DNA of 63,578 nt, the filler included, from Bigelowiella natans CCMP2755 (lineage: Eukaryota; Protista; Cercozoa): the NCBI GenBank assembly GCA_000320545.1. It is 6 parts of 6 records of this genome, joined end to end, with 100 filler letters (N's around TTAATTAATTAA, not from the genome) between each part and the next. Parts side by side here need not be neighbours in the genome. Positions count along the whole stretch, not along the records: positions 25,931 to 55,799 come from ADNK01003507.1; 5 more parts are not named here. The stretch is one strand, 5' to 3'. The stretch's first letter is position 1. Each line of letters begins with the position of its first letter. The notes under the pieces were generated by a model that saw only the letters and a list, made by a program, of their open reading frames with translations, searched no databases and was not told where the DNA came from. This document shows, piece after piece, positions 18,122 to 59,389 of the stretch. The translations under genes were made by a program, and so were the position numbers.

Positions 18122-19173
18122 AGTATGGTCAATAGTACAAAATGTAGCGAGAATGATCAAGATTGTTACATGCCATCGGAGCAGCCCGGAGCCGCTCACC
18201 ATGACAAAATGAATGGTTGATATGTACGACATACACATGCAGTATGGAACAAACTGCTGAAATAGAAGATGACGAGCTTACATATTAGACGGATGTAATA
18301 AATAAATAAATTAAATTGCAGGCTATCAATAGTCACGAGCTTAACATATGCAACATTATCTAAAAAGCGACCATTAGCCAAATTGCATGCGGCATCAATT
18401 TTGTAAAGGAAATAGCGCGATCCGATACGGTCCCACTAAAAGCGCATTTGTTTGTGCGTTATCGAATGGAAGCAAGGCGTCGTTCCTCTGTCCTCTACCA
18501 CTCTAGCGCTGCTATGCTCACAGATAGCTTATAAGCTGTAATGTTTGGTACAGCTGCTGATGAAATCAGCGCGAAGGTTATATCGTAACAATAGCTCAGT
18601 CGAATGATTAGCGTCATATGTCGTTGCAGTTGTAATATGTAGGCAAGCTACAAACAATTAATGCAGTAGAAGCAATTGGCGCCAGAAGATTTCTCGCAAA
18701 CTGCAAGACTACGCGGCATTTTAAGTTATAAACGTAACTATGCTTGGCGCTCTGGCGCTCAGTCATACCAAAGTTTTGTGATGATGGAATATATTAGCAC
18801 TCCTTCAGTCTAGCAGAGTTTCTGCAGATACAGATTGTGATCTCTAGAAGAATATAGTCATAATCGCGTTACATGCATAGGTAGCTTGTAATGCAACGGA
18901 CATGCACGACATATATGCACGACATATATGCACATGTGCGTATAACTTTGTACTTTTTTTTTTTTAAAGAAGAAAGAATCTTAAAGCGGGGGACGGACTC
19001 ATTGACTTTACGCAAATAAGACCTACGACTGGAATTCAATCGAAGTCTTTTACAATACACCAAAGAGTGTTTCATTATTGCTCATCAAAGCCATTGGTAT
19101 AGCAAGTGGGCACAAGAAGCAGCCGAACCTCACTGTATGGCAAAACGTAAAGCTAAAATGCCCGCTGAAAGGT

Positions 19174-21183: not shown

Positions 21184-22240
21184 ATGGCGACCAACAAAAA
21201 TGTAAAAATGCCTTGCGAAAATAATACGGCTGCTATGAAAGCCATGATTTCCGGGTATGCGAATTCCGAGTGGATGGAGATGAAAACAGGATCCAGAGAA
21301 CTGTACCAGATTGTCAACATGGTGGAGGAATTCACTTCAAAAAGGGAAAGATGTGGCAACATCTAAACAGCGAGAACGTGGAAAGACCCTCAGTTGTTCG
21401 ATGAAGTAATTCTCACAGAATTTTACTATTGGAACATCATTGGAGAGGGTGCATTTGGATCCGTGCACCTTTCTAATCTTTATGGCCAGCCCGTCGCAGT
21501 GAAACGCTTAAAAGTATTGGACGTCAAGAAGGTTCTCTACCGTGGTCCACCCCATTGCTATGTACTTCGATATTGCATTTGTTTCCTGCTGCTACTATCG
21601 CTACTGTATATGAGAATAGCAAGTTGACTTAATAAACAATAAGTATTACATATGTATTCAATCATCCACAGAAGGACGTAACGAACCAACTACATGTGAT
21701 GCTTACCCTCCGCCATCCGAATGTTGCAGAATACCTAGGGGTCGCTATCTTCCACTGAGTACTATCTATCATGTCAAAGTACATGGAATGGGACACGCTG
21801 TATGACTTAGTAGGGAAAAAACGAAAAAATGGCAAACAACTGCCCATGTAGAGGATCATCAAATTCCTAGAGGATATTGCTCTGGGGCTCAGTTGGCTTC
21901 ACCATCGGGGCAATATTCATTGAGATCTTAAACCTACCAATATCGTACCTAATGGAGGGAAAAGGAGATGTAAGATTTGTTCATAACAAATAGCTGTAAT
22001 GTCGCAGCAGCCTTTAAAGTATAGATATGATTATTGACACAGGAATCTTGGTTGTAGTTAGTCATTTTTATTATTTCTTATTTTCTTTGAGAACTTTTTG
22101 ATGGGTTAGTTATTACTGTACTCTTATTTCAATCTTAATCATAATTTATATCGATAATTTTGGACTGGCCCATGAAAACCTCGAAGCGCACGTCAGGCCA
22201 TCACGGGATGTGCGTTACGCGGCCCCCGAGGCATTCTAAA
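21184..22240 (+). pseudogene. Tyrosine-kinase-like (TKL) protein kinase pseudogene
   Basis: IGEGAFGSVH, VAVKRLK, LRHPNV, GLSWLHH..IH*DLKPTNI, IDNFGLA, RYAAPE; in-frame stops TAA 21364, TGA 21756, TAG 21849, TGA 21921 (replaces the Arg of HRD); DFG changed to NFG; C-lobe not traceable after APE. Confidence 0.85.
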
Positions 22241-22766
22241 CTTTGTCACATGCAGTTTTTCCATTCACAAGTCATGGATGACATGATGAAATGATCAATG
22301 TCAAATCAAGCTTGGCCTTGCACATGACGCATGCATCGCAGCGCATCACGAATGACAACATTGTGTGTGTCTGAGCTTTGTCCAGTTGTCGCGCTGACTC
22401 TGAACTGCACGTCGCCCTAGTCAGCGGCGTGTGCCAATGCTAGCAATGGGGACGTGCCGAGCGCGCATTTGCATGCTTTCAGCTGACGAGTTGAGAGACG
22501 TACGTGGCCTTCTAGCCTTGCCGACAGGATCAATCAGAGGAGGTTCCCGTGCCTGCTCTGACTTTGCATGGGCTAGTGGGGCCGTCGAGACAGCGATCCA
22601 CGATTTTGTCGTCCTGCACTGAATCGGGCATTGGGCTGCAAGCGTGCATCGTTGCTGCGTCTGCAAGAGGAGAGTCCTTGATGTGTGTGCAATGCACACA
22701 ATGTGCACACATGGCGGGGTGAATTTGTTTTCATGCATGTGATTGCTAGCAACCATCATCACATGC
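22240..22766. other. TpA-depleted island A
   Basis: Hand count: 6 TpA in ~527 bp, 5 in CTAG (22417, 22440, 22512, 22573, 22746) and 1 in GTAC; rich in TGCA/CATG; CpG retained. Confidence 0.85.
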
Positions 22767-23027
22767 GTACGTAGTAGAATTGAACACATCTGATCACGGG
22801 TTCAAGCTAGATGCACGTTTAGCAATTAACACAAATTCATGCGTTCTATGATCATGGACATAGATTTTGCAGTGCTTCTTTTTTTTGACGTAGGACATCA
22901 GATTTTATAAAATTCTTGTTCTACAGATTGGCTAGTATACTGTACAAGAAGGGGTCTGCCTATCGTTCCCTCGTAAAATTATGAAGTTATTCTCCGATTC
23001 GACAAAAAACCCTCATAGGAGATATTA

Positions 23028-23665: not shown

Positions 23666-24199
23666 TCTCTGTGAGATGCTGCTGTGTTGGATGAGTTGTA
23701 TCGTGACCCCGTTTGGTGGGAGGTATACAATGGCAAACCCTACTTTTAGTTCCAGCCCTATCTACGATCATATGTTAGAAAATCGATCGAAATCGAAGCC
23801 ATTTATGAATTAAATATGACACTTATATGTGTCGTATCTTAATAATGTCCAGAAATCAACAGACGAGATTTTAATGAATCGACTCGCACAATCTTAATGT
23901 CCCTACAGTGCCCCTTGTGAGTCACAGTGGCTTTCCCGGTACGACACGTCATGGCGCATTATTTCCCTCAAAGATGCAAGCCGTCTGTCGTGAAAGCTTT
24001 TCCCTGAATACCTAAGTTAATGCCATTGAAAATTTACTGTATCCTTAATCAGCGACATACTCACCTAAAACATTGCAAGGATACCGTGCCAGTTTGTTAA
24101 TTGAGGTTGGTCAGTTTTGGGTAGATTTACACATGATTCTTCATGCTCCAGACTCTTCACCTGCTTTAGTACCCTACGACTGCTTTTTAGTACCCTAGG

Positions 24200-25009
24200 A
24201 ACTGTCAAAAGTGATGAGTGTGGAAACTCGATGGCAACCTGCTCCCTGCAGCGTTTTCAACTTTGTTCACAGTTTCTGCTGCTTTGGCGTGCAAGGTTCG
24301 AGAGGAAAAGAGAGCCAATCAATCAATGTTTCAAAGAAATTCATTCATGTCGATTGAGCACGAGTCTTGAATCAAGGTGATGGGTTTGCTTTGGCCGCTT
24401 GAGGCACACCTTCCTTCCACCCACGTGTTGTGAGGCTGTCTGGGATTTTGGACGCACCACGCTGGCACGCACGCCACTCTTGTTGTCACAGGAGTCATTG
24501 CTTCGTCACGCAGCTTGAAGTGCAAAAGCTGACCATTTGTTGAGACTGCTGGCGACCACGCTGGCACACAGTCGCGCTGACCGCACCGCTCCAGCTGGCC
24601 AGCGTCGTTCGCAGCCGTCGGGCATGCATCGCACAAGCGAATCACGCGCTGCACGTGTGCCCTTTCTAGCTCTGATGAGCGCAATGTGTTGCTAGCATTG
24701 TGTGCATTGTGCATTGGATCAATGCATGCCACACGCGTGTGCGTGTGATGCAACACAATGAGTGCTCGGGCACACTTCATCCAATGATGGACACAGCAAC
24801 ATTGTGCACAACGTTGCGTCCGTTGTCAAGAAGATGCAGACATTGCATGCCATGCATGAAACAACGCATCACATGTGCACCATGAAAGCGCAGGCACGTG
24901 TGAATGGCCAGTGCGTCAGCAATTGCAAGTCGTCTAGTCGCACATGTGATGGTTAGCGCGGCTTCACTGCGTGTCCTTTCCACATCATGGAGCAAAAAAT
25001 TGTCATCGA
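24200..25009. other. TpA-depleted island B
   Basis: Hand count: 4 TpA in ~810 bp (CTAG at 24666, 24692, 24934; TTAG at 24953); none between 24200 and 24665. Confidence 0.9.
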
Positions 25010-25610
25010 TTATGTGCATTTTTCAATGCGTAGTATCCCACCATGGCGCTCGATCCTTCTCCTCTTTCTTTTTCCGCAGAATCTTCGATGCCCTCGAAGC
25101 CGTTGCAACCTTTGCACGGGTGCGCGTGATCTTAAGGGCCACTTTCGAGTGCCTGTATCCTCCACCGGGAGACGCGGCTCCACCGTTGACACCTGTATCG
25201 AAATTGTGTTTTAATATGTATATCACCAGAATTCAACTCGCTTGCCGATTAAGACCGCTTACAAAGCAAAGGCTGTATTAAATCCATCTCTCCCACCACA
25301 TTTCATTGTCGCTCGCTGAAGACGATAAGGCATCAACAATAGTCTCCAATACCCGTGCTCAGCTTTAAGGGAGATAGGGCCTTGTTACTTTTTCCGTCAG
25401 CTGTTCCATGTGCTGTGGAGTTGCACAATATCTGCTTCGCCTGCACACGTAGATATGGACACCACGCAGTGAGTTTCTACTCGTAGTCAACCTCTGGTAT
25501 AGCGCGTATTCGTAATAATCTAGCTTTCATGGGGTCAGAATCATCGTGCGACAATATCGAGAGATGATTTAGCCATCCATTAAAGTGTACCCTCCCTTTC
25601 ACAACCCCTC

Positions 25611-25670
<60 letters not shown>

Positions 25671-25830
25671 TGTGTGTGTGTGTGTGTGTGTGTGTTCGCG
25701 ACGCGCGCGTCGTGTGTAGTTTTTTCTATATATACACACACTCACTCTCTGAGAGAGAGAGAGAGATATATATACACACGCGCGCGCGCGCTCGCGCGCG
25801 CGGGGGGGGGCGCGCGCGCGCGCGCGCGCG

Positions 25831-25930
25831 NNNNNNNNNNNNNNNNNNNNNNNNNNNNNNNNNNNNNNNNNNNNTTAATTAATTAANNNNNNNNNNNNNN
25901 NNNNNNNNNNNNNNNNNNNNNNNNNNNNNN
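25831..25930. other. Assembly spacer N44-TTAATTAATTAA-N44 (six-frame stop linker)
   Basis: Identical 100-bp pattern occurs five times in the window; artificial. Confidence 0.97.
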
Positions 25931-26194
25931 CCCCCCCCCCCCCCCCCCTTTACTTCATCTTGCCCCACCTTGATGCCCCCTCATGTCTATTTGACCCCTC
26001 TTCTTTGGGGTTTTTCCTTTTAACCCTCACGGATTGGGAGGTACTGTAGCAACCAGTCCCCCCCCCCCCCCCCCCCTCTAAAAAGTAAACCTTGTTCCGA
26101 GGGTCTCTCTCTCTCTCCCTCTCTCTCTCCCTCCCTCTTATTAATGTGTGTAGCGCTGCTTGTGACACCTCCTCCTGCCCTTGCTCCCTTCATC

Positions 26195-26780
26195 AGCTTG
26201 CTGCCGTGTTCCCCACCCTCGTCGGCGTGGCCCTTGTGAGCTTGTCGCAGTACACGTATGGCCTGCCCTACTGGAGGACGGTGATGATGAGCGGGTACTT
26301 ACTACTGCTACTAGTACTGCTACGATGTGCCTTCACCGTTCGCAATGCAAGCAGCAGGCTTATTGATCTGAGTTACACATGAAAATAAACTAACTGTGCC
26401 ATTTGTCTCGGAAGGTATAATCCTGCCCACCTTCTTGACGCCGCAGAGCGCGTGCATGCCTGTTGGGTGAGGTACAGCACTGGCCAGGAGACCGTGCTGT
26501 CTAAGGCGATCCAGGAGCGCTACTCCGGCAAGGAGGTCAGGAGCGTTTCTTCCATAAGGTACGGGCACACGGTTCAAGCCCACACACACAACACACAACA
26601 CACACACACACACGCAACGCACGCACATGATATATACATACGTGTATAGTACTTCAGTATAGGATCATGCTCTGTGCATCCTTTGTTGTTCGGCGCACCG
26701 CAATACGCTTCACCACTGTCCCCCCCCCCCCCATTCAGGCCTCCGCCGCGCTTCCTTGAGGATTTCCGTAGCAAAATGTG
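26195..26780 (+). CDS. 3' fragment of a spliced gene, unknown product
   Basis: Exon-like blocks LAAVFPTLVGVALVSLSQYTYGLPYWRT, YSTGQETVLSKAIQERYSGKEVRSVSSIR (GT follows) and PPPRFLEDFRSKM*; begins near the contig edge. Confidence 0.35.
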
Positions 26781-27089
26781 AAGCGGGGAGGACGGTTTCG
26801 TGCAACATCATCACGAAGCTAGCGCATGCAGGCGTAGGATGTTCTTTGGAATTACTCCTCCATCTACTACACTCAGCGTTTGCGGCTAAAATCAGTAGCA
26901 TCATGCGCTGACGCTACAAAAACGTACCAGCACACACAATGCATTTCCAGATGTGTGTACACATGTCAGATGTAAGGACAACAAAATGCATTTATTTGTA
27001 TGTGCACGTGAAAGATGCTCTAGGCGATGCGCAAGGTCTAGTTGGTTTGTGTCAAAAGATTGATACGAGAGACTGTTTGCTTTACCATG

Positions 27090-28440
27090 CGAGCTAGCGA
27101 GCATAGCACAGCTGGCGCAGTTCACACCGTGCCATGTAGCATGTCACGAGCTCCATGCTCTCAGGCGCGCGCATGGATGGCAAGCTAGCAGCAAGTAGAG
27201 GCTAGGTTTGTAATCCTAGAATCGCATTCATGAATGATGCTCTTCAGGAACTCCATGGCTAGACAGCCCTTCTAGCCTTTAGGCCATCATGTAGCGTGCG
27301 CGCTGTCGAACACATGAAGTTGAATGCATCTGTTCTTTGCTACATGTAGTCCATTGCACACATGCTTTTACCCGCCACACGTGCACCAAATGAGCATGCA
27401 CATGTGCTGAATGACATGTGTTGTTGACAAGTGCACATGAGCAGGTCAACCACACATGTGTCATTGTGGAACATGTGTCACAACCCCATGCATGTGCGCT
27501 CCATGGCCCAAAGGGCCATGCAGAACGGCCGTGGTTTGCAATGATGCGTGCGTGATTGCGATGTGTGATGCATGCCATGCTGCAGCATGCTGGCATGAAT
27601 GGCACATGTAGGCGGCTAGCTAGGTGGACTGCATCTAGACTAGAGACATGCATGTCTAGCTACACTGGAGATGCACGAGTGGCGCGTTCTGGCATTGGCC
27701 TCCTAGCCTCTTTCTGCCAAGCAAGAACTGCGATGCATGCCCTAGCTAGCTAGCTAGCTGCGCAGTTTTGCAATCGACTGCTGTGATGAAGTGACGCACC
27801 ATCGATCTAGCTAGCTAGCTAGATGTCTCGATGACTCGAACTTCGAGGTCTAGAGGTTTAGATTTTTCCTGCGGCGTAGCTGCTTAGGTAGATCTAGAGA
27901 TTGTCTAGAGATCTAAAGATGCAACATCTAGAACATCTTCATGCTAGCATGCATGCAGTGTTCAGTGAATGCATGCTAGCATGCTAGCATGATGACAATG
28001 ATCCACAAGGCCATTTCGAGGAATGATAGCGAATGTGCTTTGGCTAGTTGGCACTGCTAGACTGCATGAGGTCTAGAGGTGCATCTTCGACCTAGCTAGC
28101 TAGCGAGGCGTGCTAGCGTGCTAGCGTCTAGGCGTGGGCAGGGAAGCCACTGCATGCTAGCATGCGAAAGAGATTGGTAGATGCAGTTTAAGAGATGGCT
28201 GTAGAGAGTGGACCATCTCTAGATCTGTAGACATGGCCACATGTCTGAATTTTGCACATGCCTGTGTCTAGATGTGTGCACACGTTGCAAACATCTAGAT
28301 GCTGTCTAGCTGTGCACAAAATGATCTCGATGCTGTCTAGCTGTGCATTGAATGATCTAGCAGCTAACAGATAACCTAGTAACGTTCATGTGGCTTGGGC
28401 ATGTGCGCCGATAGCAAATAGCCTCGATCGCAGCAGCAAC
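27090..28440. other. TpA-skewed island C (very CTAG/CATG/TGCA-rich)
   Basis: Dozens of CTAG; most other surviving TpA are in xTAG or CTAx contexts; TAT/ATA/TAA runs typical of flanking intergenic DNA are nearly absent. Confidence 0.75.
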
Positions 28441-28502
28441 ATTTTACGTGCGTAACGTAATCGAACGATGCGCGAACAAAACCAAAATATGCTTGATGTG
28501 TC

Positions 28503-31500
28503 TTATCTACGTGTTCTACTTTTCTGTGCAGGCACTCCACGCCAATATTGTAACGATGGAATTGATTTCTTCAGCATTTTGCTCAGTGGTGCAAGATAAG
28601 ATCTTTTCCCTATTGAACATTCTGGGACTGACAAATGTGCTCCAATTCCTACCTTTGATCCAGGACCTGCCTCAACATTTTTAAATTCCATGGAAAAATT
28701 ATCGAAGATGTGGCCTAAGAATGCACCTTCGATCACAGCCTCCTTACCGATTCTCAAAAAATCCCAATCTGTCACTGCGGTTGACGTTATGATAGCATCA
28801 AGTGATACTTCTGCGCCTAAAGTGCAGAGGAAAACATTTAGAAGACTGCTTCCATGCAGAACCTTAAAGATCGACTCAAATGCTTCCCGCTCATCTTGCA
28901 CATGCATTGAGCAAAGAAGTCGAGGGTCTCCAGGCTTCAGAATGATCTCTCGCATTCTTCCTACAAGAACCCACTTCCAAAATAGCATGTTGATGATGCG
29001 GCATCCGAAATAGATTGCGAAATACACTCCAAAGAGTGCGGTATGTGCCTCTCCACTGACATCAATTTTCCCTGATATCTCTAAACCAGCTTCAAATGCA
29101 GCTAGTAAACACAGGTAACGCGTCGCTAATCGAAGAACCCACAAAAACATGTCCATGGAGATGAACCACGTTTGAAAGAGCAACGTGTTTTTCTGTCTTT
29201 TCGTGATGTACTCATGTAGTTTCTCTTGGCTCGAGCGCGACACCTTAAACCTATTTGTTCCCAGCAGAGCGGTGCCTTCAGGCACTATCAGTGGCTTCGC
29301 AGAGTTCAGACCCTCTACCGAAGTGAGGAAGGAGATGTTGGAATTGTTCATCATGACAACATTCCCTGAAATGTGGCTCTGGACTCCTACCGTGCAGCCA
29401 TTGCCAATTCTGATCCGACTTCTGACATTCTGACTGCGACATCTAAATTCAGGCTCAATTGTACCGATGGAAACGAAAGAGTACTCTCCAATCTCGATAA
29501 GATGGGCATCTTCCGGATGAATGTTATAGGGCTGCGGCATGAGTGAGCCAACACCGATTGATAAACCCATTAGCCGTTGATAAATTAGATAATATGAATG
29601 CTTCGTGCCTAGCACAATAAATCCGAAGTATTTTAATGCAAAACGTTGAAGTAGAGCTAAATACCAACGCCTCCATTTTGTGAACAGTGTTTTACGGTAG
29701 GGGCCCTCTCGCACATGGCCAGCCAAAATCCACTTTGCGACGATTGAGTAGAGACCCAACATAACGAAGCTCCCAACAATTTGGAAAGTGTAGAAAATCA
29801 GGAAAAAATACCTTTGGTCGATCAGAGCCTCATTGTTAGCAGCCTGCTCGGGGTTGGTTCGAATCTCAAAGAGGTCCACGGCCCAAAATGAGATAGCTCC
29901 GACACTCGAAAAAATTGTTGCCAGCCATAGCTGCGCCACGAAAGTCAGCATCTTGCAGGTTTCGAGCTTCAGATCTATTTTACTTGGCTCGGGCTTGCAC
30001 ACCAACGCGTCGAATTTTGGCATTGCTACACCTTTGGGGTTTAATTCATCATCAGTCTTGTCACCGGTATCAGCTCGTTCTCCTCGGGTGTGGACAGGCG
30101 TGCTGGGCTGAAACTTTCTGTCGACGTGGCGAAGGCTTCTCCCATTGTTATTGGTATTTTTTGATGCTAAGAACTTCGGTACTGCCTCCTCTAGCTTTTT
30201 GTCACTTTTGGAAGAGATTTCCTTATTAAGATATAAGCTGTTGTTATTTGATTGGAGTTGAAGTCCCGCGTTTGCGCCATATTCACCAACCTCGCTTTGG
30301 ATTTCGTAATTAGAGGGGCTGCCGCCTCCTCCACGTGCAGACAGTTTTGCCGACTGAATAGTACCTGTGCTATGGCCAGATTCACGGTCTCGATCATAAT
30401 TGAATTCGTCAGTGGGAGTCTCAATGTTTTCCGCGAACGTTTTCTTATGCTCATCACTGGGGGACGCTGGTTTATATTGCCGGCTTCCTTTGTTGCCGCT
30501 TTTGAGCTGCCTCATTCGATTCCCTTGCCAAATAGTCCCTCTAGGGATCTTGGTATGGGGTCTGACGTATGTGTGAACCTTGATCCAACATCCATCCTCC
30601 AATATAGAGCCTTTGCCTATTACAGTGTTGCTGGAGATTGTGCACGATTTTCCTATTTTTATTGGGGCTAAAACAAGCCCATCATCCGCATCCATATCTC
30701 GCGCTAACAGGCGCCCAGATACACTGCTGTCAGCGCCAATACAGATTAGGTCGTGCTCTCGGAGAAATGTCTTCAAGTCAACCGCAATAGTGATCTTCGC
30801 TCCACAGAGAATATAGAAGAAACGAAACATAATAGTGTCGTAAATGGCAGCACCGACCAATAGCTCCCACATACTGAAAAGGGAGTCGATATACCACCAG
30901 CGCATCCAATACCAGCCGTGTAATGCATGCTCACCAGGTTTGTACCGTCCGATTATTAACCACTTCATCACAATTGTTATAATTGAGAAGGAGAGTGCCC
31001 AGATTGGAAATATAAATATTAGCAACAAGCCAGTGATCTGAGCTTCTGTAAACACATAAGGAATGGTTACTAAAGATAAACGGTATATCTACTCAAAGTC
31101 GAAATGAACTTTTCATCACGAAAAATTGTGGATTTGAATTCTTCATGGTAGTACTAACCGTCATAAATTCCGACAGCTATCGAGCTCCACGGTTCACTTC
31201 TTTTAATCGCTTCTTGCGAAAATGAGTAAGCTGGAATAGCGGCAATGGATCCAAGAAAGAAAATGGAGAGAACTCCAATGGTTTGAAGCACTATACGCAA
31301 CCAGGTAGACAAATTCTCTCTGTGTGCTAAGCTTGTGAATTTGCTTTCAAATTCTGTCTCATGAGAATCCTAATTACGGCTAGATGTGAACACAACGCGC
31401 ACAGAGAGTCACTTGAAATCATTTACCGAAGCGAGACGTTTTTGGCTATCCATGGGCTTCTTTTTTGGTCTATGATGGACTCGCAGTGGAATTGCGGTCA

Positions 31501-34500
31501 TCGAACGACGTCCAGTATCAGATAGGGCTAAAATAAAATGACGAAAGAGTGAACATAGAAGTATCCATGCTTTCTAGTCAAGTATGTATGAGACCTTGAA
31601 GTGAAAACGCTGGGTCAAAAGTTCCATTATATAGACTGTCTATCGTTTCGTCGGTAACCATGCAAGCATTCGGTGAATCAGGATCTCGAGTAAGTTTCTG
31701 TGTCGCCCTACTCCAGTAGTCCGATATACCATTCATTTCGGCATGCATCTCACAGAAACTGGATACGATCTGGGTGAGGTTATTTGGGGTCATTCGCAGC
31801 AGGATTAAGTCATTTTGGAACATTATCCCAAAACTATCTCTCAGTGCCCCCGCGATTTCAACTAATTGTATCGAATCCACGAGTGTGCCAAATTCGTCAT
31901 TCCTGGTCCATAATAAAACATCCTTTACCTCACCACATCTATAAATCAACTATTTAGAATCATTTAAGCTAAGTTCGTTTTACCCCATGTCCTTCCAATC
32001 GAATCCAGTCGATAAGCCTTTAGCAAGAGCACCTTCAAAATCTTCTTTGGTCATAACCGTTGCAAAGGATATCTGGAGGGAGTTCACTATTCTAACGTGT
32101 GGGTTCATCGAGGAGGAGCTCTTCTCTTCTACTGCCGGTTGCTTTGCACTATTGTTGTCGGTTGCCATCTTGAACAGAGGTTGCAGCAGGTTCGACTGAT
32201 ATAGTCTCCTAGCTTCGGTCCTGTTTTGTTGGGACAATTGAAGATGATCATACAGTTGGGTAGATTAAAGCGCACGTGTTACCTTCTCAATTTTCCACTG
32301 GAAGTTTTAGGGATCGTTCTCTCCTTTATCAAGACCACTTCAGATACATTCACTGATTCCGACCTTCTAACGGCAATCCTGATTTGGGAAAAACATTACG
32401 ATCGTTGATTCTTGAATTTTATGTGATCATACGCTATTTCTCTTGCAACGACTCCGTAATTTCGCTGCAACTTTCGCAGTTCTTTCTTGCCTCTTACCTG
32501 TCGCATAAAATAATGAATATTGGCGATGAATTACGGAAAATGACCTCATTTACAGTAAAGTACAGACCTCACTCAACACGACAAGCTTCTCCGTCCCGTC
32601 CCCCCCCTTCATAGAGAAAGCAATAGTACATCCTGGTCGAACGCCTTCAACCTACCAGGAGTCAATAGCTTTGAAAATGGGTTACTGTAATGTTCGGTCT
32701 TCAATGTGCACCTTGTCCACGGGAGCCTCGATGTCTTTTGGAGCTATATTTCTACCACGAATGATAATTACGTCCTTCATTCGAGAGACGAAGTAAAGGC
32801 GTGTTCCTAATTCCAAGTTTCTTGATAAGCATTCATGAGAAATACTGTATCAACACATAGCTTTCACGAACCTTCCATATAGCCAACATCGCCTGTCCGT
32901 AGCCACAGATCATTGGAACCTTTAAGTTCGGCACCAAATACCTCCTTCGATTTTTGTGGCTGATTCCAATATCCCTTTCAAGGTGAAAGATGTTAGTGTA
33001 TATATCATTTGTATTATTGACCGTAATTACCAATGCAACAGACTCTGAATTCAGCCATATCTCGCCCTCTTGCCCGTCCTCTACTTGCGAAGAGGTTTCT
33101 GGATCTACAATGCTACACTTCACACCTGCATGAATTCAAATGCGCATCAGACATGCATGTAACATCATCTTTATTCCGTACCTAATGATCGTGAGAGATC
33201 TCCAAACACGGCGCAGCACATCTGCTTTGGATTGACCTGGATGTTTCACAATGTAAGAAAAAATGGATTTCATTATAATAACTGACCTTTGAATAAGCCC
33301 TCTCTGGATCATTGAAGTCGAAACTAACCCCAACGACATGCTCTGCCATCCCGTAGCATGCATGGATCTGGTGAGTTTGTGCAACAGTTCCAGTTTATAT
33401 CAGACTTTCACATCTTGATGCAGAAAAGAAATCTAGTCGTGCGGAGTCACCGTGTTCCTTTTCATCCCATACTTGCCCATCAGATCCTCGAAACCATCAA
33501 AACTTTCCTTCAGATTTTCCTCACCTCCCGCTCCGATGGAGCGGACATGACTAAGATTGAATCCCTTTGGAACTAGAACGGTGGACCACTTGTGCACCAA
33601 AAGAGTGTACGCAAAGTTAGGAGCCTAAAGCATAGGTTCAATCAATCAATCGGTATTGTCCAGTTTCGAAAATTATTGGTCAATGAAGTTTAGCCTTTCT
33701 TATCATTTACTTGACTTAGATTATGTAAATTGTAAATACTGCAATCTATTGTGCATTACAAATGAAACGTTGCAGTTATATCTCCACATGGAGTGCCTGA
33801 ATTAAAATAAAGAGGATTCGGCAATGAGCCCCCATTATTATATTTCGGTTTAATCCTTACATCCACATCGGAGGACACTTCAGAAACGCGATAGGACTCA
33901 TAAAATGACCTAGTTAAGAAATAAGTTAGACCATCTCAGTTCATGCTCATACAACATGCAACATCCCACCCTGTCCTCCAGCGTATAAAGATAATAGGTA
34001 ATTCGCAATGAGTCCTAGATCGTGGTACTGGGGCAACCAGCAGATAGTTCTATGAGGTCTGAAGACGAAGGAAAACCTTATGACAGTGAAATAAAGTTTT
34101 CATTACAGAAAGATACCTGAAGCTTATTTGCTCTACGTCTGGGTCACGATTCTCATTTTGTGAATTTATATGAAGTAATTGCAGATTGTGAAGTAGATTC
34201 GTGTAGGAGATCATGACACCCTAAAGTAGAAATGTGATGAGTTCAGGTGATGAATTCTGTACTATGAACGTGCCTTTGGATCTCCAGTTGAGCCACTTGT
34301 GTATTGTAAGAAAGCAAGGTCAGGGTGGGTCATGTTTACTCTTGATTTCCTGGAGAATCTTTTCCCGACGAATTTCACATCTGATCATTTCAAAAATGTC
34401 GAACGATTTTTTATCATTACAAATATGCGCCATACCTTTGTCGAGACTATCTGTATTCACAAATGGAATGTTTGGCCACGTTGTGCCAACTTTGAGCTTC

Positions 34501-34979
34501 AGCTTCCAAATGTGTCTTGTGAAGTCCTTGTGGGAGAGTACATGCCGCGCTTGACAGTCATCAATGATGAAGTTCATTTTTCTTATACTGTACTCAAGGC
34601 GTGCATGAGAAGGTGGATAAATTGGAACTGCGACAACCCCTGCAATGAGGCAGCCCAAAAAAGCTTGAATGAAATCTAGGCTAAATAAATAGCACATCAC
34701 AACTCGATCGCCCGGTTTAACACCGAGATTGTTTCGCAGATAATCTGCGACTGTATTAGCATGCTCCCAAACTTCAAGATAGGAAAGTTTCTTTTCTATG
34801 TTGCCCTTTTCTCCTATCCACGCATAGAGAAGGCGATTTGGGTTTTTGTTTTTCTGCTTCATGAAATGATGAAGTAACGAATTCCAGGAGGACTTTCTCT
34901 TCGAATCCGAGAGCATTGATGATCGCTCGCTATCATGTGGAGAAAATGATGAAACTCTACCCTCGATGGCCTCGTGCAT
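28503..34979 (-). CDS. Membrane-bound NRPS-like enzyme: FAAL-type adenylation domain + carrier (ACP/PCP) domain + Pls/PosA-type C-terminus (TM pairs alternating with hexapeptide beta-helix repeats)
   Basis: Spliced A-domain motifs: GVKPGDRV...AFLGCLIAGVVAVPIYPP, LAFLQYTSGSTGDPK|GVMISYTNL, CWLPQYHDLGLI, APNFAY, CYGMAE, GEIWLNSESVAL|GYW, WLRTGDVGY, SRMKDVIIIRGRNIAPKDIE, IPKTSSGKLR. Carrier motif VDSIQLVEIAGALR (~31830-31880). The 850-aa last exon has three KW(L/I/V)(I/L)xG TM units each followed by (L/C/M)G(A/L)x(I/V) and IG-type hexapeptide repeats. Confidence 0.9.
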
Positions 34980-35595
34980 CGGTATCACTTCTAGAATTTC
35001 GAATTTGCACAATTGTTCTGTTGTTACCTCCTGGTCGTATACACGATTTTAGGTAGGGTCTATGTAAGCTAGTGCTGCCTGAAAGGGCGGCCTCCACTAC
35101 AAGGAACCCAAGGAACGTTTGGAGTGTATTCTTACTAATATTACCACCCTTTGAACGACCTTCAATGTGCTGTGCTGTCAATTTTCCATGCCTGGCTGCA
35201 TTCTTGCTTCCACCTTGAGCGATGAGGACGTTATCCTGAGTAAGGCTGGGGGGACTTGACCATAAGAGACTGTTGTAAATGTTGTATTGGGGATGCCTTT
35301 TCGAGCTGCGACATGCTACATCGAACAATTTCGCCGCGAAACGAGTGCACGTGGTTGTACATGTACCTGGAAGCAAAAAGCAAAGGCTGGAGCGGGCATT
35401 GAGCAAGTTTTTTCCGTTTTTCCAGCACTCGTTTGGCGCATGCGACTGTGATATTCCTCGCTGATGTGGCCGAAACCGCCTACCATGATGCAATGACCGT
35501 GACTTTTGACCAAATGACTCAGTACCTCTCAACAAACGGAACGAGCGATTGCAAAACAGTGCATCAAAGACGTCCAACAGACCACTTGAGCTTAC

Positions 35596-36500
35596 GATTG
35601 CAGCAACAATTGCATGTCGCGGTCTGAAATGTTCAGTGCGTCTTGCAGCGCGACTTCATTGCAGCGTGATTTCTCGAGATTTGTTCGCCTTGGTGGTCTC
35701 CTGAGGGTGTCCAACGGATGATGGTGTCCAACTTTGACAGCAGTCTAGCAGTGCTTGTGCCTTGTGCACATTTTGTTGGAATGTCAAAATGGGCATGAAT
35801 CTTGAATGTTGGACTTTTGATCGAAGGGTGTGGAGATCAAGGCCAGTGGCTAGGTGGAACGTCCAATGAACCCCAGCTGTGTGAGGTTCTTTTCTCGTTC
35901 GTTCAGAGAACGCAACCTCTTCTCGCATTGCACCCCATGACAGTCTTGCTGCTTGGGGAGGAGGCAATTTTTAGCAAACTGAACTGAGCACTTCTAGACT
36001 TCTTCTGCAAATTCCTTTCAGTGCTGGGGTGCGCCAATGAACAAAGACACTCATCAAAGAACGAAGACACTGCACTCGTTCGTTCGTTTTGGCACTCTGC
36101 AACAGGTGTTCTTTGTGCACCAGCTTGGCGGTCTAGCGGTGGAGACATTTCACTCGTTCGTTCGTCTTGGCACTCTGCAACAGGTGTTCTTTCTGCGTGC
36201 ACCAGCTTGGCGGTCTAGCGGTGGACCAGTGCGTGTGTGCATGCCAGTGTGGAGACACTTCACTCGTTCGATTGTTAATGCGTGCACCCATCTAGCCATC
36301 ATCACTCTTGCGCACAGCACAGAACAACAAAGAAAGACTGCCACACATTGGAACGAAGACACCCAGTTGGCTCTGGAGCCAGACGTCATGCTAGCATGCG
36401 CTAGTGCTAGTAGTGTGTGAGCAGTCGCTTGGTCGTCATCACCAGATCAAACAGGTCTAGTGGTGCATTTGCCACACGCTGGCCGGCCAGCTAGGTGTTG
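35596..36500. other. TpA-depleted island D (contains a 78-bp tandem repeat)
   Basis: Hand count: 14 TpA in ~905 bp, 11 in CTAG plus TTAG, GTAG, TTAA; TA-rich sequence resumes from ~36610. Confidence 0.88.
36073..36270. repeat. ~78-bp tandem direct repeat (2 copies plus partial third)
   Basis: cactcgttcgttcg..ttggcactctgcaacaggtgttcttt..gtgcaccagcttggcggtctagcggtgga at 36073 and 36151; ggagacac/ttcactcgttcg again at ~36251. Confidence 0.9.
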
Positions 36501-36970
36501 ACTATGCAACGATGATCTGTCGCACTGTCGTCTGCATCGTGTCAAGCACACATGTGTGTGTTCACTAAACCACAAGTTGTCATGTCTAATTAGACACACT
36601 GCACTGCTAGCTAGCTAGACTACGTGTAGTACACCGTGATCTCCACCGTGTCACCGTGTGTGAAGTACACATTTGTATGTACACATACACAAATATTTTG
36701 GCACATATATAGATATTGTCACATAAGATAGACATATAGTGGATACCATACGTTGTACGTTCTATGTAATGTGTAAAGCACGTGCAGTGTCTAAGTACAT
36801 CATCTAGACATATAAATGTCAGGTCCAATTCTTGCATTGGCTAACCGTTTCAGAATTTACTATAAATAAGAACTAAATTTCCAGGCAAAATTGGCTTGAG
36901 ATCTCCATTAAATCTAGAGTAGCCTTCGCTCTAATGTCTGTTCGCAAAGAAAGGCGATGCAATTTTCATC

Positions 36971-37720
36971 CTAATAGAAGCGAGGTTTCCAGTCCTTCTT
37001 ATTCGGTAGAGTTGAGTCAATGCCATCCTTCTTGGCTTCTGTTGGAACATCACCAAGTCCCTTGCCATAATATCCAGGTTGATCCCATGCTTTGCCTGAC
37101 AACCTGGAAAATTATTAGGCTACATGTTAGGATAATGGTTTATAACGAAGAGTATGCGACTAACTTTTTCTGCCGCAAGCGCTCCACGTCTGCCATCTGT
37201 TGGTGGTTCTTCATCGCACGCACTGTGCGGTCCTCCATCATTGAGTGGATCCAAGCGGTCACAAAAGACATGCTCAAAGGACTGCTGTATCGAGAAAATC
37301 ATTACTGTGAGACAACGCACCCTCTAAATCACCCCCACTTTGACTATAGTTCGATCTCTATCTCTCAATCGTGACTTATGGCAATTTTGACAGTGTTTTT
37401 AAAAGATTAAGAGTCTCCCTCTGATTTGATTCCTCTCAACAACTAGGCTGCCCCCCCCCCCTCCCATTCCTCATCCGTCACCCTACAACCTCCTGGCGCA
37501 GAACAAGTTATTCTAAAATTCTCGCCAATAGCAATCGAACGCCGTACAATATTACAATGATCTGATAAAAATTGATGTCGTAATAAGTTTTTACCCCAAA
37601 TTTCGATGCCCGAGAATTTCACGAGAAACTACGACAGAAAATTAATATTTTATCGGCCAAGTCGCATCCCTAAAACCGCCATGCATCTGTACCAAGCCAT
37701 TGTCTGTAGCCAAAGGTCAT
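36971..37720 (-). CDS. Possible small spliced gene, unknown product
   Basis: AG/GT-bounded exons reading SPLSMSFVTAWIHSMMEDRTVRAMKNHQQMADVERLRQK|KLSGKAWDQPGYYGKGLGDVP...KPRFY*; possible start MTFGYRQWLGTDAWR near 37720. Confidence 0.4.
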
Positions 37721-37900
37721 TTTTTATCGAAGGAACTTCCTACTGAATCTTCAAAAGTGAAATTCTGCTGAGTATAACTTTCTTTTTTAAGAAAATCTTC
37801 ATATGAGTTGTCGTAGGTGCAGAACCCCAAACTTTTTTTCTGATTCAGATACGAGTATGGCTTCCTCCTCGTCGATGTATGTAAATGTGATGCGACGGCG

Positions 37901-37975
37901 ATGCAGATAGATGGGGGATCATCGAGGACATGCATGATGGGTGGTGAAGAGGGAACGAAATTCTTGTTAAGAAAA

Positions 37976-38032
<57 letters not shown>

Positions 38033-38945
38033 TGCATGATGCAAGCTCACTGTTCGCAACTTTTAGATTTGGAGGACTTGGGGGACCAGAGAAACTCGAA
38101 TTGTGGAAGCAAGGGGCAGAGGCTAGAATTTATAAATGTAGCTACATGGGGCGTCCAGCACTGGTAAAGGAGCGCTTTGAGAAGAAATACCGCCACCCAG
38201 AACTTGATCGAAAGATGAGAAATCAGCGCACTCTGGCAGAGGTGAGGGCGATCCTCAAGTGCAGAAAGTTAGGACTGGTGAGGATTTCCATTAGTATTTG
38301 TTGCCCCTTTTAATGCGAAAGTGACGACGCCTTTGGTTTTCAGGACTCCCCAGTAATATTCCACGTTGACTTCCAGCGAAGCGCGATTGTAATGGAAGCT
38401 GTTGACGGTCGCACGATGAAGTAAAATAAAATAAAAATAATAACAGTTTGATCCTGAAATCAGTTTCTGTTCCTCGAGGATAATCTTGTTGTTCCGATAA
38501 TGCAGGGACACGTTGATTGAGATCGAGGGGAAGCTCGCGGATGACGGAGAAGCATCCCTACGCGCGAAGACAGAGGCGGCAGATCTGATGCAAAAAATGG
38601 GGAAAGCGATAGCTATGATGCACAATGGAGGAATTGTACATGGAGACTTGACAACATCGAACTTCCTCTTGCGGTATGCACTGAGATGCACTTCTTTCAT
38701 GCAAGTCCCCTTTTCGTGCCCATTGTGAGCGAATGTCAACTCATAGAAGTCTCGATTCTGCTGTTTTCAATTCAGAGCTACAAACGAGCTCGTCATGATC
38801 GATTTCGGACTCAGCTTCGTCTCCACTGATGCGGAAGATTTAGCTGTCGATCTTTACGTTCTTGAGCGGGCATTTATAAGCACTCATCCCGGAGCAGAAC
38901 TTCTTTTCAAAAAGGTAATTGTTGTACACACTGAATTACCCACAC

Positions 38946-39181: not shown

Positions 39182-39199
39182 AGACGGCCAAGCAGTTAT

Positions 39200-39303
39200 T
39201 CATTCACCACATGCTAGCATGAAATGATGATATCTAGATGTACCTACCAGATCTAGCAGATACCTAGCTAGCTAGATATGCTAACCGATCATCTAGATCA
39301 TTA

Positions 39304-39346
<43 letters not shown>

Positions 39347-39795
39347 TCAAGTTCATGCTGTATTAGATCACATTTTTGCAGTGCATGCTAGCGTGGCAGC
39401 TGCTAGCCTGATGAGATATGTACACATGTGGATGTACCTAGCTAGCTAGTGACACATGTCCAGACACAGCAGGTTTAGAGCTAGGATTGCAATGCATGCA
39501 CATGGTCTAGTGGTAGACAGGCTGAAGCAGCTAACGACAAGCAGAGCCGTTAATGTGTAACAGAGCCGAGCCACATCACTAGCTAGCTTGATCGCCACGT
39601 CAGCTCAAGAGATTGGATGTACATCGCGTAGATCTAGACACCATGTACGTGAGACAGCTCAGCGCAATCTCATGTCTAGATGTGTCCCTGTGCGCCACTA
39701 TTTTTTTCATTAGCAGCTCGGCGATCACAGTGATTGTCATAGCAATCTAGCATTGTGCCATGTGCGTTCATGTACGTGTTGTCGATTGCTGCTGT

Positions 39796-39826
<31 letters not shown>

Positions 39827-39930
39827 GCGCGCATCACATCACATCACACTTGTCCATCACATCGTGATCATAGGCCTACATGGCATGCTAGCATGTGGCG
39901 TGCCTGGCCGGATGTGTGTTTCAGTACACA
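39200..39930. other. Weaker CTAG/CATG-rich, partly TpA-depleted intergenic tract (island E)
   Basis: Many CTAG, CATG and TGCA words, but also intact (AT)n and several unprotected TpA. Confidence 0.4.
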
Positions 39931-39934
39931 TATG

Positions 39935-40294
39935 ATCACTTGCGCAATCTTGAAGGAGCTTTCAAACGCGAACGAGATGGAGCTCGGATCCTTGATATCC
40001 CCTAATGAGCAATGTAGTCATTTCACATGTGATGATGCAAGTTCAGATATCTAGATGTTGTACCATTGGAGAACGAGGAGATGTAATTCTATCGGCATTT
40101 GACTTCGACCCTTTTGTCCTGATGACATTAGTTACAAAGTGAGAATATATGTGGGCTCAATGTATCTCGATGTGAAATAAAGTGGTTCGTCATCATGTAA
40201 GAAACCTGCTCGGGCTCTGCGAATGCAGTCTTCTTGACCCAATTGTCCTGATAACGGTACATATAGAATGAAAACAAATGTGGTTATATGGATT

Positions 40295-40327: not shown

Positions 40328-43300
40328 TTCTCTCTCTCTCTCTCTCTTGCTCTTTCCCTCAGTGTGGGTGTGAGTCGTCATCATTCACCTGCTCGGACTC
40401 TGAGAATGCGTTCTCCTTGTCGTTCTTCTGAGCTGTCTTAAGGGTTTAAGTTTGCTTGTGTGGCTGGCGATTGGCTTTCTGCAAATTTAATCGCAGATTC
40501 AAAGACAGCTCTTCACCAATGCAAAAAAATTGTTCCTCTGCTTTTTAATTTTTGGGAAAATAAAAGAATGAGAATTTATTTTACGTTCGTGCTGTACGCC
40601 GAGTGGGAGACTTCATTCTTCTCCTATGTTGTAAATGAGAAATCCTCATAGCGAAGATGTTATGGCATCCTGTAAATTTAACTACCTAGTTTTTAGGCGA
40701 GGAATCATGCGAGGGGTTGGAATTTTCGTTTGTTTTCCATTCTTTTCGCTGAAAGCGTACGTCAATATCTCATTATGACCTCATAATTAACGTCTAAAAT
40801 CGATTTGTGCAGTCGTACGAATCTGTAGTGTCCCCCCCTGCAGAGGCCGCGCTCTTGCTCTTAAAAGATGTGGGGGCACGGAGACGACTTGGTGCCTGCG
40901 ATGTGCATGAACGTGGAGAACATCTTTGGCGAACGAACGAGTTTCCAGATGTTCTCACAATATTATTACCTTGAGTCGGCGCGGTCGCCGCCTGCTCGCG
41001 CTAACTTTCCCCTCAGGTCTCTTTACTTTCGGCTCAGAATGTATCATAGCCTTCGACGTGGTGCTGTCCACAGTGTGTCCTACGTAGTGTTTGTAGGTTT
41101 AACGCGATTTCTATCAGCCCTCCTAATGCATGCATGAGAGGTTTACACCTTCACTAGTTCCGTCTTTCGTGCCTTCCTCTGTATCAACCAACATTTTCCC
41201 GGATATATCCGCATCACCGAACCGACTCCAGTCGGCCTCCCGCGGTGTTGATGTCACGTCTGGCGCCTGCTTCGGCGGCTTCTTTTTCAAGGAGAGCTTG
41301 GCATTTATGGTTGCTTGTATCTGACCAGAAATCCAGTCGTTCCAGTAATGCCATGGAATGTTCAATTTCTTTGATTGTACGAACATTGAGGTGGGGTCAA
41401 ATTGGTCAAACCCGAGATCCGCCTCATCTAGTTTTCCCTGCTCCTGGAATCGTCGCAAAGCCGCAGTAACTGAAAGGCAAAAGAATTGAAGCTTCTGGTC
41501 ATCTTCGGCTGAGATAGATGTTCCTTTTTCATCTCCTGATGACGCCCCAGGTAAGGACTTTAAGCGCTCCTCTTCCTCACGCCGTTGTTTAACTTCTGCC
41601 AGCTTCTGGGCTTCCTCCTCTATTTTTTTCTTTTCTTCTTCTTCCCTTTTTCGTGACGCTTCTTCCTCAACCTGTTTTCTTTCTTTCTCCATTCGCAGTT
41701 TTTCTGCTTTCAGAGCTTTTAACTGCTCATCTTTTGCCCTCATCCTCTCTACAACTTCCCGTTCAATCATTTCCTTCAAACGACGTTGTTTCTCTATCTC
41801 TGCTTCTTTGGCTTTCTTCTCGCCTTCTTCCTTTTTGCGAAGATAGCCAGGTTGGATAAGCTCCAGTTTGCGCTCATCACTCATGGATTCCAGCACACCA
41901 TTTTCACCAAATAGGATGATATTATCGCCCGCCTTCCCGGCAAGACGTGCTTTATTAATTTCAAATTCGATAGTTGGAAATGGAGGGACGTCAGGAAGAA
42001 TTTTCTTCACTACGGATAGATTACAGGCTGCTGCAATAGCATTGATAACCTTTCGAGGATTCCTCAAGAGGGACAAATCGTCGATCTCGAACATAGCACA
42101 TTCTGGAATACCCAATATCTTCAGAGTCTTGATTGCAGCGAGAATATTTTCTCTTGCGAGCACAGAGCCATCCGTTGCGTTCGTATGAATTTTAATTTCA
42201 GACTTTTTGTCGAGCTTGTTACACATCTGACAAATGGCGACTCCATTTGGTAGCCCATCGAACAAATCTGGACGTACTTCGACCCCTAGGTCCACAAACC
42301 ACGTTGCAGCTTGTTTTGCTACAATCGAGACCACCTCAGAAGACGCAAGATATTTTATCTGTATGGTTACAAGCATCATAGCATGAGATAATGAAGCGTC
42401 ATACGAGTATTTATACATTCTAAATTATAGGATAGTTACATGTGTCAAACAGATTGGTGCGACCTTATTAGCAGCCAGCGACTCTTGAATATCGCGTTTG
42501 GCCTGAATTCTACTTTGAAGGGTCTCAATCAAATTGCTGCGATATCTCATTTGTCGAAAGTGTCTTTGCATGAATAACACTGATTGGCGGATTCGTTTGA
42601 CGCGTTGTACTGCGAGGGCCGTACGAAGAATTGAAGTAAGATGTAAAATCTGCAATCTTTGTCGGCATCGGCGCAGAGTTTTAAACATCGTTTTAGATAT
42701 CACCACCTGTATCCTCACGTAGCGTGCCCATTTTCGTTCCGCACGCATCCGACGCAACCGAACCAGCCACCGGGAGTATGCTTTCATAAACGCAGACAAG
42801 CGTAGTATACGTTTGCGGAGAAGGTGTTTCTTAATCCTATCCACAAGATCAGCAGGAACCTTCCAGTTTGGCCCTCCCTTACGCATAAGATCTTCTAGAA
42901 GTTCCTCTTGCTGTCCCTTAAAGAAGACCTTCGTGAGCCCCATCTCGAAATTAGAGAGACTTTGGTTGAAGCTTTTCAGTATAGCTTCACAAAAGTCTCG
43001 TTGATTTACAGTCTCCATCTTTTTCCGGTCATTGGAGAATACTGAAGGACCGTACCGAGCGAAAAGGGCTTTATACTGGATCCTTGTCGGATATCCACAC
43101 TTGATGATCTTTATTGCTTCAATTAAGCCGCCGCATCTGAGCTGGTCACCGACGTATTTATCTTTGAAAACTCCGGCCATCTTATCCAGATTAGGCTTGA
43201 TGCATCTCACAAAGTACGGCTTTGTGGTGTTCAAACTCTTCATTAGATTCTTCAGTTGTTCGCTAAAAACATACCCAAGTGTACGCTTCTTGCTCTTTTT

Positions 43301-46300: not shown

Positions 46301-46546
46301 TAGTGAATAGCACGTAGCACGGAGTGTCATTACTCAATCTTTCACAAAAGATAAGTCGATTCGTTCATGATCGCCTCGCGGAAAAATGGGGGAGGCGCGC
46401 TGATGGTATCAATGCCCACTATGATTTTACCGGCACTCCGTCTTTGAGGGCAGACATTCCTCCTTCGGAAACGACCGCCTGCGGCACAAAGTTTGCCTGA
46501 TTGCAACAATTCAGCAAACCAAAGAATCGCCGAGCTTGGATGCCAT
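39935..46546 (-). CDS. Unconventional myosin: motor domain, IQ-like neck, calponin-homology domain, coiled coil and low-complexity tail
   Basis: DLSSLIHLDEPNVVRNLKLRY, VAVNPYK, PHVFNIAEDAY, NQSMVVCGESGAGKTE, NPILESFGNAK|TLLNNNSSRFGKF, YLLEKSRVV, ERNYHIFYQ, IGILDVFGFE, NSFEQFCINFTNETLQ, PYFVRCIKPN, GLTKVFFK; CH domain in ORF 41123-42418. The core 41123-46189 is solid; extreme 5' and 3' exons are uncertain. Confidence 0.92.
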
Positions 46547-47730: not shown

Positions 47731-47838
47731 TTAGCAGGTCCTCGCATGTGTGCATGTGCATGACACGTGACAATGCAATGATGTTAGGTTCATGTTTTCA
47801 CGTACAATGTGCGTCATCGTGCGACATGATGCAAGCAT

Positions 47839-50169: not shown

Positions 50170-50559
50170 TGTCAACCCCCCAATTAGTGCATCATTGAAA
50201 TAATTCAAATACCGGTAGTTCAAAATTAAATTTGTGCGAGTACGAGCATGAACATGTTCGTAATAGTGTCAATATCCTGAGACACCGAAAAAAAAAATCG
50301 CGAAAAATTAAAAAACACTCCTTGGAAATATCTTTTCGTAGAGTCCAAGGACCAGGAAAAATCGAAAAAAAATTGCCTACGTTCACTGGTGGGACATGTG
50401 GAAAAATTGAGGCCATTTTTGGATGCGTCTATTCAACTTTCCCAGTCGGATGGGCCATCCGACAAGAAGCATGATTCTTGCACATGAGAAACATGTTTCT
50501 TGGTAAAGCGCCCGCGTACGCCTTTTTTTTGGTTGTCGCACCCTTAAAACCACCTGCGG

Positions 50560-55799: not shown

Positions 55800-55899
55800 N
55801 NNNNNNNNNNNNNNNNNNNNNNNNNNNNNNNNNNNNNNNNNNNTTAATTAATTAANNNNNNNNNNNNNNNNNNNNNNNNNNNNNNNNNNNNNNNNNNNN
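55800..55899. other. Assembly spacer
   Basis: N44-TTAATTAATTAA-N44. Confidence 0.97.
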
Positions 55900-57412: not shown

Positions 57413-57512
57413 NNNNNNNNNNNNNNNNNNNNNNNNNNNNNNNNNNNNNNNNNNNNTTAATTAATTAANNNNNNNNNNNNNNNNNNNNNNNNNNNNNNNN
57501 NNNNNNNNNNNN
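57413..57512. other. Assembly spacer
   Basis: N44-TTAATTAATTAA-N44. Confidence 0.97.
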
Positions 57513-58409: not shown

Positions 58410-58449
<40 letters not shown>

Positions 58450-59289: not shown

Positions 59290-59389
59290 NNNNNNNNNNN
59301 NNNNNNNNNNNNNNNNNNNNNNNNNNNNNNNNNTTAATTAATTAANNNNNNNNNNNNNNNNNNNNNNNNNNNNNNNNNNNNNNNNNNNN
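59290..59389. other. Assembly spacer
   Basis: N44-TTAATTAATTAA-N44. Confidence 0.97.

Follow-up and report, generated by a model that had tools for sequence, protein, structure and literature searches.

Genes and TA-poor islands

The window, that is the whole stretch of DNA analysed here, comprises 63,578 nt of Bigelowiella natans sequence, filler letters included, and all counts below come from this single window and its 100 surviving TA sites. It is nuclear DNA of B. natans, and contains an 846-aa exon at 28506-31043 that is 100% identical to jgi/Bigna1/91948. This is the last exon of a minus-strand gene (28503-35791) with approximately 30 short introns, which encodes a 1833-aa fatty acyl-AMP ligase (FAAL) fused to a Pls/PosA-like terminal region. 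Apart from Bigna1/91948, the FAAL/Pls-like protein has no match at E<=1e-40 among the longer proteins covered by the search, no loci related to the exon were found in metagenome contigs, and the fusion is possibly lineage-specific. Further along the same strand lie a myosin with a CH domain (41123-46400), which is a fast-evolving paralogue of Bigna1/91633 (branch 0.31 versus 0.05-0.11) and has an exon whose closest relatives are chlorarachniophyte proteins (74-77%), and P0003 (47842-50169), an intronless ORF of 776 aa in a single exon that is a singleton in clustering and matches no family of Pfam or NCBIfam. The stretch at 53250-54900 encodes a DDX60-like PIN domain; it is GC-rich and TA-poor but lacks a gain of CA+TG (rho 0.9-1.1) and was rejected as an island. 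The 100-bp gaps at 25831-25930, 55800-55899, 57413-57512, 59290-59389 and 62327-62426 consist of two N runs flanking a 12-bp AT spacer, and the near-duplicate segments next to poly-C runs at 12657-12780 and 13130-13260 may be an assembly artefact.

Between the genes lie islands in which TA is scarce, and the sites that survive are divided into CTAG, the half class (DTAG and CTAH) and the remainder (DTAH). Island A (22239-22766) retains 6 TA, 5 of them in CTAG, and is built around a dispersed repeat of about 290 bp (22382-22670) whose collapsed contigs have approximately 8-12 times the local depth. Island B (24193-25009) retains 5 TA, 4 in CTAG, and has a decayed array at 24591, island D (35595-36480) retains 13, 10 in CTAG, with internal tandem duplications of 78-82 bp and its left part within the 5' leader of the FAAL/Pls-like transcript, and island F (46653-47801) retains 6, 3 in CTAG, with mixed arrays at 47109 and 47248. 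Island C (27090-28440) is a TA-poor and CTAG-rich gap between convergent genes which overlaps the 3' end of the FAAL/Pls-like transcript. Island E (39190-39950) is CTAG-rich and only partly depleted of TA, and after masking of its microsatellites retains 20 CTAG, 7 DTAG, 5 CTAH and 17 DTAH, of which 7 are GTAC, the commonest other survivor.

Islands A, B, C, D and F occupy gaps between host genes and each right edge adjoins the 3' end of a minus-strand gene, an arrangement that is partly automatic given that the minus strand carries the majority of genes in 22-50 kb. Sequencing-run contigs labelled as RNA, where the labels are guesses, end at the right edges of A to D (22856-22874, 24976-25006, 28192-28394 and 36490-36649), with the ends at 28192 and 28394 falling within island C, and one such contig extends to 35791 in island D; gaps in these contigs across the islands are not taken as a sign of silence. 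The right edge of island F adjoins the stop codon of P0003. By reading of the sequence, the gaps behind gene 3' ends are edited in 22000-48000, and the head-to-head gaps at about 25500-26200, 37400-38050 and 50200-50550 are unedited, as are the 3' gaps beyond this 26-kb stretch at 18150-18950 and 58080-58850. The sequence is not an assembly error, since in two DNA runs the stretch 26900-36900 is recovered as a single contig that agrees with the window at every letter (0 differences); these runs are themselves possibly the source of the window DNA (as are 14 of the 20 runs).

The islands do not resemble each other. No homology above shuffled controls was found in 21 comparisons between islands, a weak self-palindrome score in island B (z=4.6 on 8 shuffles) corresponds to an unconvincing alignment, and Rfam gave no match in 21500-48500. 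In a comparison of contigs at 80% likeness, islands B, C and D each occur once. The repeat of island A is matched at both ends by several contigs from other places, is also present in RNA-labelled runs from elsewhere, and the listed flanks of its other copies mostly have TA only in CTAG or no TA at all. Three of the four listed differences between its copies are CG versus TG/CA, which may reflect methylation of CpG or second hits, and one copy reads CA where the window has TG (22430-22431). Scans with motifs returned 76 loci, none of which is related to the island A repeat beyond the seed and none of which (0/76) has a TA-poor, CA/TG-rich 600-mer.

Loss of TpA and sparing of CTAG

A mutation process with matching products has been measured in B. 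natans, where 231 of 302 de novo mutations lie in two integrated viral regions and, according to the main text of the preprint, all AT->GC changes in those regions are TpA->TpG or TpA->CpA at about 1000x background (Mettrop et al., bioRxiv 10.64898/2026.01.13.699255). At such a rate the expectation for the two DNA runs, which show 0 differences, is far under one event. Islands B, D and F satisfy the cut-offs of the preprint for 1-kb windows (rhoTA<=0.43, rhoCA+TG>=1.52) in 7 sliding windows, and island A, which is 0.5 kb long, stays outside them. Counted on both strands, TA is reduced to 76 against 406 expected and TG+CA is raised to 757 against 497. This gain, the C|A found at silent sites and the single TG/CA site between repeat copies indirectly support a change of TA into TG or CA. 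Decay of CpG was rejected as the source of CA and TG, as the rhoCG of the islands (0.64-0.92) is too mild and such decay would not remove TA.

It is proposed, at a probability of about one half, that the islands are in-place scars of the measured TpA->TpG/CpA mutator, the rate of which is graded by both flanks and lowest in CTAG. A reading of the sequence alone that preceded this analysis (hereafter the sequence-only reading) had argued for a process that depends on sequence context and attacks both strands of the genome, and to this extent it is supported by the hypermutation measured in this species. The targets in the preprint are viral, transposon-derived or otherwise foreign DNA. Island A has a dispersed repeat, B, C and D are single copy, and none of the 18 island ORFs (2 + 16) has a Pfam match below E 0.07, so that the islands may or may not be of foreign origin.

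Survival is dominated by one tetramer. The tight edges of A, B, D and F run immediately within TA sites other than CTAG, a choice that reduces the counts of every class but CTAG, and between these edges 22 of 30 surviving TA are CTAG, next to 5 DTAG, 0 CTAH and 3 DTAH; wide edges give 26, 12, 6 and 17. Island C retains 70 TA, made up of 44 CTAG, 17 DTAG (10 GTAG, 4 ATAG, 3 TTAG), 4 CTAH (2 CTAC, 2 CTAA) and 5 DTAH, the numbers expected from the remainder of the window being 2.4, 12.1, 12.3 and 48.4 respectively. These counts agree closely with the sequence-only reading, which had listed 22 CTAG, 3 xTAG and 3 others among 28 sites in A, B, D and F and had described the other survivors of island C as mostly xTAG or CTAx (21 of 26 here). 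Against a background of six hand-picked non-coding flanks (3612 bp, two of which adjoin islands) CTAG in A, B, D and F stands at 1.07x, DTAG at 0.09x, CTAH at 0 and DTAH at 0.017x, which corresponds to 22 CTAG where 20.6 are expected and to 3 DTAH where 172 are expected. At most 762 bp pass without a TA outside CTAG (24191-24954; P ~1e-18 at background density). As had been predicted, CTAG thus survives far better than any other NTAN, with an odds ratio over the half class of 13 (p=2e-17).

This pattern could in principle arise if all TA were equally mutable and CTAG were remade by slippage or local duplication, or if motifs such as GCTAGC and TCTAGA were selected in 3' flanks. In island C the density of CTAG is 5x that of matched flanks and 18x that of the window, 13 of its 44 CTAG are tandem, its short CTAG-rich motifs match about 100 contigs from elsewhere, and unedited 3' flanks are also rich in CTAG (10 in 739 bp at 58080-58850). 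In A, B, D and F, however, 0.4 CTAG would be left of the 22 in a simulation that treats every TA alike, and all 22 are isolated and lie in varied six-mers, so that this alternative as a whole is very improbable. Expansion of microsatellites, which the sequence-only reading had singled out as a threat to its rule, is likewise rejected for these four islands, and even in island C 31 of the 44 CTAG are isolated. Regeneration of TAG from methylated CAG is unlikely since A, B, D and F show no shortage of CAG/CTG (147 versus 103).

Sparing alone is insufficient to account for the 5-fold excess of CTAG in island C. The density in island C was likely inherited from CTAG-rich 3' flanks and raised by local duplication, and then left standing. 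The island does contain local duplications, including a 12-nt repeat with CTAG in 7 copies, one of which reads CTGG (27586). An excess of CTGG/CCAG is absent from the island (4 versus 7.7 expected), which counts against the preferred reading of the islands as mutator scars. The rhoTA of island C is 0.69-0.92 and falls to 0.28-0.42 when CTAG is left out, so it is solely CTAG that lifts this island above the cut-offs of the preprint.

The sequence-only reading considered CTAG immune, of which the strong sparing stands and the immunity does not. In B, D and F units of CTGG, CCAG or CCGG share a register with one another or with CTAG in 9 pairs, where 0.96 would be expected (p=8e-7; two arrays in island F may be duplicates), as from decayed (CTAG)n arrays, and CTAG is thus slow rather than immune. 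The total of CTGG+CCAG in A, B, D and F, 36 against 19, is inside the spread of unaffected tetramers (maximum 1.89x). CTAG is not alone in being favoured, as GTAC is partly spared and makes up 14 of the 44 DTAH survivors in the wide islands and E (9% expected, p=2e-5), with 0 of 10 in island C.

Alternatively CTAG could owe its survival to a protective mark, such as methylation within it on both strands, or to a protein bound there, and not to a preference of the mutator itself; such a shield would be akin to the self-mark of a restriction-modification system. N6-methyl-A resists TadA-type deamination. The protection looks specific to the palindrome, as the half class of A, B, D and F is nearly gone with CTAG undiminished, and TTAG, which CTAG becomes through a C->T change, accounts for 4 of the 5 survivors in that class. 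B. natans also has a DNMT6 (10.1101/2021.06.11.447926). Such a shield is nevertheless quite unlikely: elsewhere in the window CTAG falls only slightly short of its expected number (98 against about 114 from flank frequencies), one motif-specific mark is insufficient given that GTAC is partly spared too, and CTAG is not among the methylation motifs of chlorarachniophyte viruses in the available part of their description (PMC13196603). Our literature search found no data on methylation of B. natans DNA, nor any Bigelowiella study of 6mA/AMT1 or TET/JBP.

Half class, strands and the TAH rule

The sequence-only reading explained the survival of CTAG by a target TAH recognised on each strand independently, which would protect xTAG and CTAx on one strand and make DTAG and CTAH equally frequent. 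A clean per-strand TAH rule does not hold. The half class of A, B, D and F numbers 5 where half-protection predicts 9.6-14.2 (p=0.08 or 0.005 depending on the background) and its odds ratio over DTAH is 2.7 (p=0.27); it is also slightly above the 1.5-1.9 that follow from sparing of CTAG only (p=0.02-0.04), a point against the preferred reading. In island C the half class as a whole does show intermediate survival (odds ratio over DTAH 6.7, p=4e-5). CTAH is not above DTAH (odds ratio 1.6, p=0.49). The predicted strand symmetry, the failure of which the sequence-only reading had named as a refutation, is contradicted by 22 DTAG against 4 CTAH with tight edges (p=0.0005) and 29 against 10 with wide edges (p=0.003), and an imbalance like 22:4 turns up in just 0-0.2% of background runs. 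This excess of DTAG on the plus strand is not accounted for by a symmetric effect of the whole palindrome and in this respect the preferred reading falls short as well.

The presumed products of the mutator point in the same direction with regard to TAH. In A, B, D and F both CTGH, which TAH allows (103 versus 75.8), and DTGG, which it forbids (95 versus 76.2), are found above expectation, and a strict TAH model fits the products poorly (chi2 p=0.004) whereas a model in which either route is open fits them well (p=0.66). The sparing of GTAC also counts against TAH, since GTAC would be a full target on both strands.

A weakened form of the per-strand rule, in which a G after the edited A is disfavoured (TAT > TAA > TAC >> TAG) and the plus strand is struck approximately 2-6x more often, is a serious contender, if an improbable one. 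With CTAG left out, fitted rates in the wide islands and E are 1 for TAT, 0.42-0.44 for TAA, 0.31-0.35 for TAC and 0.02-0.13 for TAG, where the low rate of TAG improves the fit (p 6e-5 to 1e-3). The plus-strand share is 0.70-0.72 in the same set and 0.85-0.91 with tight edges, and a per-strand model with strand bias beats a flat model on the survivors (likelihood ratio test of the bias term, p 4e-4 to 0.01); a four-rate fit on the tight islands diverged and was left unused. A plus-biased simulation yields 7 DTAH, 19 DTAG and 4 CTAH, which is near to island C, and the plus strand carries 533 TG against 452 CA (p=0.01). Such a bias could be set by the direction of transcription or of the replication fork, as A, B, C, D and F all lie just downstream of a minus-strand gene, with transcript ends at the right edges of A to D and a stop codon at that of F. 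The excess of TG over CA nevertheless weakens to p=0.056 against the window's own skew, and plus-strand DTGG, the change that this rule forbids, is raised by 25 in A, B, D and F. Furthermore, 17 of the 22 DTAG come from island C, which is saturated with CTAG, and may be altered copies of CTAG motifs that were amplified there, and silent sites in neighbouring exons that read TAG on the plus strand are depleted, as described below.

Silent sites in host genes

The exons next to the islands carry a trace of the same loss. In the last exon of the FAAL/Pls-like gene and in P0003, silent TpA is depleted most strongly near islands C and F respectively, where silent T|A is replaced by C|A; the odds ratio for silent T|A is 0.17 within 800 bp and 0.43-0.49 further away (distance interaction p=0.006). 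Two myosin exons have odds ratios of 0.71-0.78, which are not significant (p=0.18 for 0.71), and the 15 introns of the gene between C and D retain TA (74 in 926 bp). This gradient suggests that the mutator leaks into host genes. Avoidance of silent TpA at codon junctions is common in eukaryotes, which counts against the preferred reading. Silent CT|AH in the exons next to the islands, which corresponds to TAG on the plus strand, is depleted (12:26 versus 37:19, odds ratio 0.24, p=0.0015), in opposition to TAH, which would spare it. Silent CT|AG is not depleted at its very few sites (4:3), but the difference from CT|AH is not significant taken alone (p=0.23), and this too tells against sparing of CTAG by the mutator.

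The gradient in coding sequence also bears on the idea that the islands are functional non-coding elements selected against TA, with no special mutator involved. Their location at gene ends and their overlap with UTRs would be in line with such a role, which is however highly improbable given the absence of homology between islands and of Rfam matches in 21500-48500, the loss of silent coding sites with proximity to the islands, and the matching mutation process that the main text of the preprint reports for B. natans (10.64898/2026.01.13.699255).

The preferred reading of the islands as scars of this process can be extended as follows. The mutator likely acts on both strands of genomic DNA and would convert A into a base that is read as G, by deamination of A to I as proposed in the preprint, although the sequence alone would fit an attack on T as well. 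Its rate would be graded by both flanks, being fastest in W-TA-W, slower with G or C flanks and slowest, though above zero, in CTAG. Its starting points were likely repeats or foreign DNA, from which it extended across entire gaps downstream of genes over about 26 kb. The silent-site gradient suggests that a mutator proposed to be anti-viral alters host genes too, and its extent is likely underestimated, because scans based on dinucleotides miss CTAG-rich scars such as island C. A bolder version, tentative and on balance doubtful, holds that the mutator, which changes A to G in DNA, is unlike any described adenosine deaminase. It would shun TAG, or a self-mark would stop it at CTAG; its strand bias would follow the direction of transcription, and it would run through entire gaps beyond the 3' ends of genes and alter silent sites of the host.

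Comparison with known mutators and deaminases

The closest counterpart of the islands is the hypermutation described by Mettrop et al., which occurs in the same species, affects the same dinucleotide and gives the same products on both strands, with B, D and F falling within the preprint's own cut-offs (10.64898/2026.01.13.699255). According to its main text the clusters of the preprint comprise three 1-kb windows, whereas the islands are host intergenic gaps of 0.5-1.4 kb from which the loss leaks into exons. That main text does not mention the flanking context of the TpA mutation or CTAG, and the sparing of CTAG, the partial sparing of GTAC and the strand asymmetry seen here are absent from it; no report of CTAG sparing by a TpA mutator was found in our literature search. 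TpA hypermutation in B. natans is thus already described, and what appears new is the exemption of CTAG and the probable leakage into host exons, both in one window.

The islands also recall fungal RIP, with which they share local and dinucleotide-specific transitions on both strands, spill-over into flanks and, in the case of one island, a location on a dispersed repeat. Unlike RIP targets, islands B, C and D are now single copy. RIP creates TpA from CpA. Here it is TA that is lost and CA/TG that is gained, the opposite direction to RIP, which makes C->T changes as noted by the preprint (10.64898/2026.01.13.699255). AID/APOBEC enzymes resemble the process in reading a context beyond the dinucleotide, with motifs of four nucleotides (PMC10661471), and in a proposed defence against foreign DNA, and differ from it in making C->T rather than A->G changes. 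Strand-coordinated runs are not evident in the islands, as TGCA and CATG are as common as TGTG/CACA.

Among adenosine deaminases, ADAT2/3, for which Bn78255 and Bn77986 are candidates, edits A34 in AGN anticodons. The main text of the preprint proposes an ADAT2/3-like deaminase (10.64898/2026.01.13.699255), yet in the available parts of the respective reports ADAR, which converts A to I, prefers 5'UAG (PMC10661471), and the fungal Tad2-Tad3-Ame1 complex requires U at -1, favours A or G at +1 and frequently edits UAG (PMC11156358). Both resemble the mutator in that A is read as G and in the strong need for T/U before it, but they act on RNA and favour TAG, whereas in the genomic DNA of the islands TAG is best spared and has the lowest fitted rate. 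The exemption of CTAG is therefore a sharp criterion for candidate enzymes or marks. Were the mutator indeed unlike the described deaminases, this exemption would argue against a plain ADAT2/3 and serve as a fingerprint by which its scars could be recognised in further eukaryotes. Sparing of TAG would set a mutator apart from ADAR, from fungal Tad2-Tad3 and from ADAT2/3 alike.
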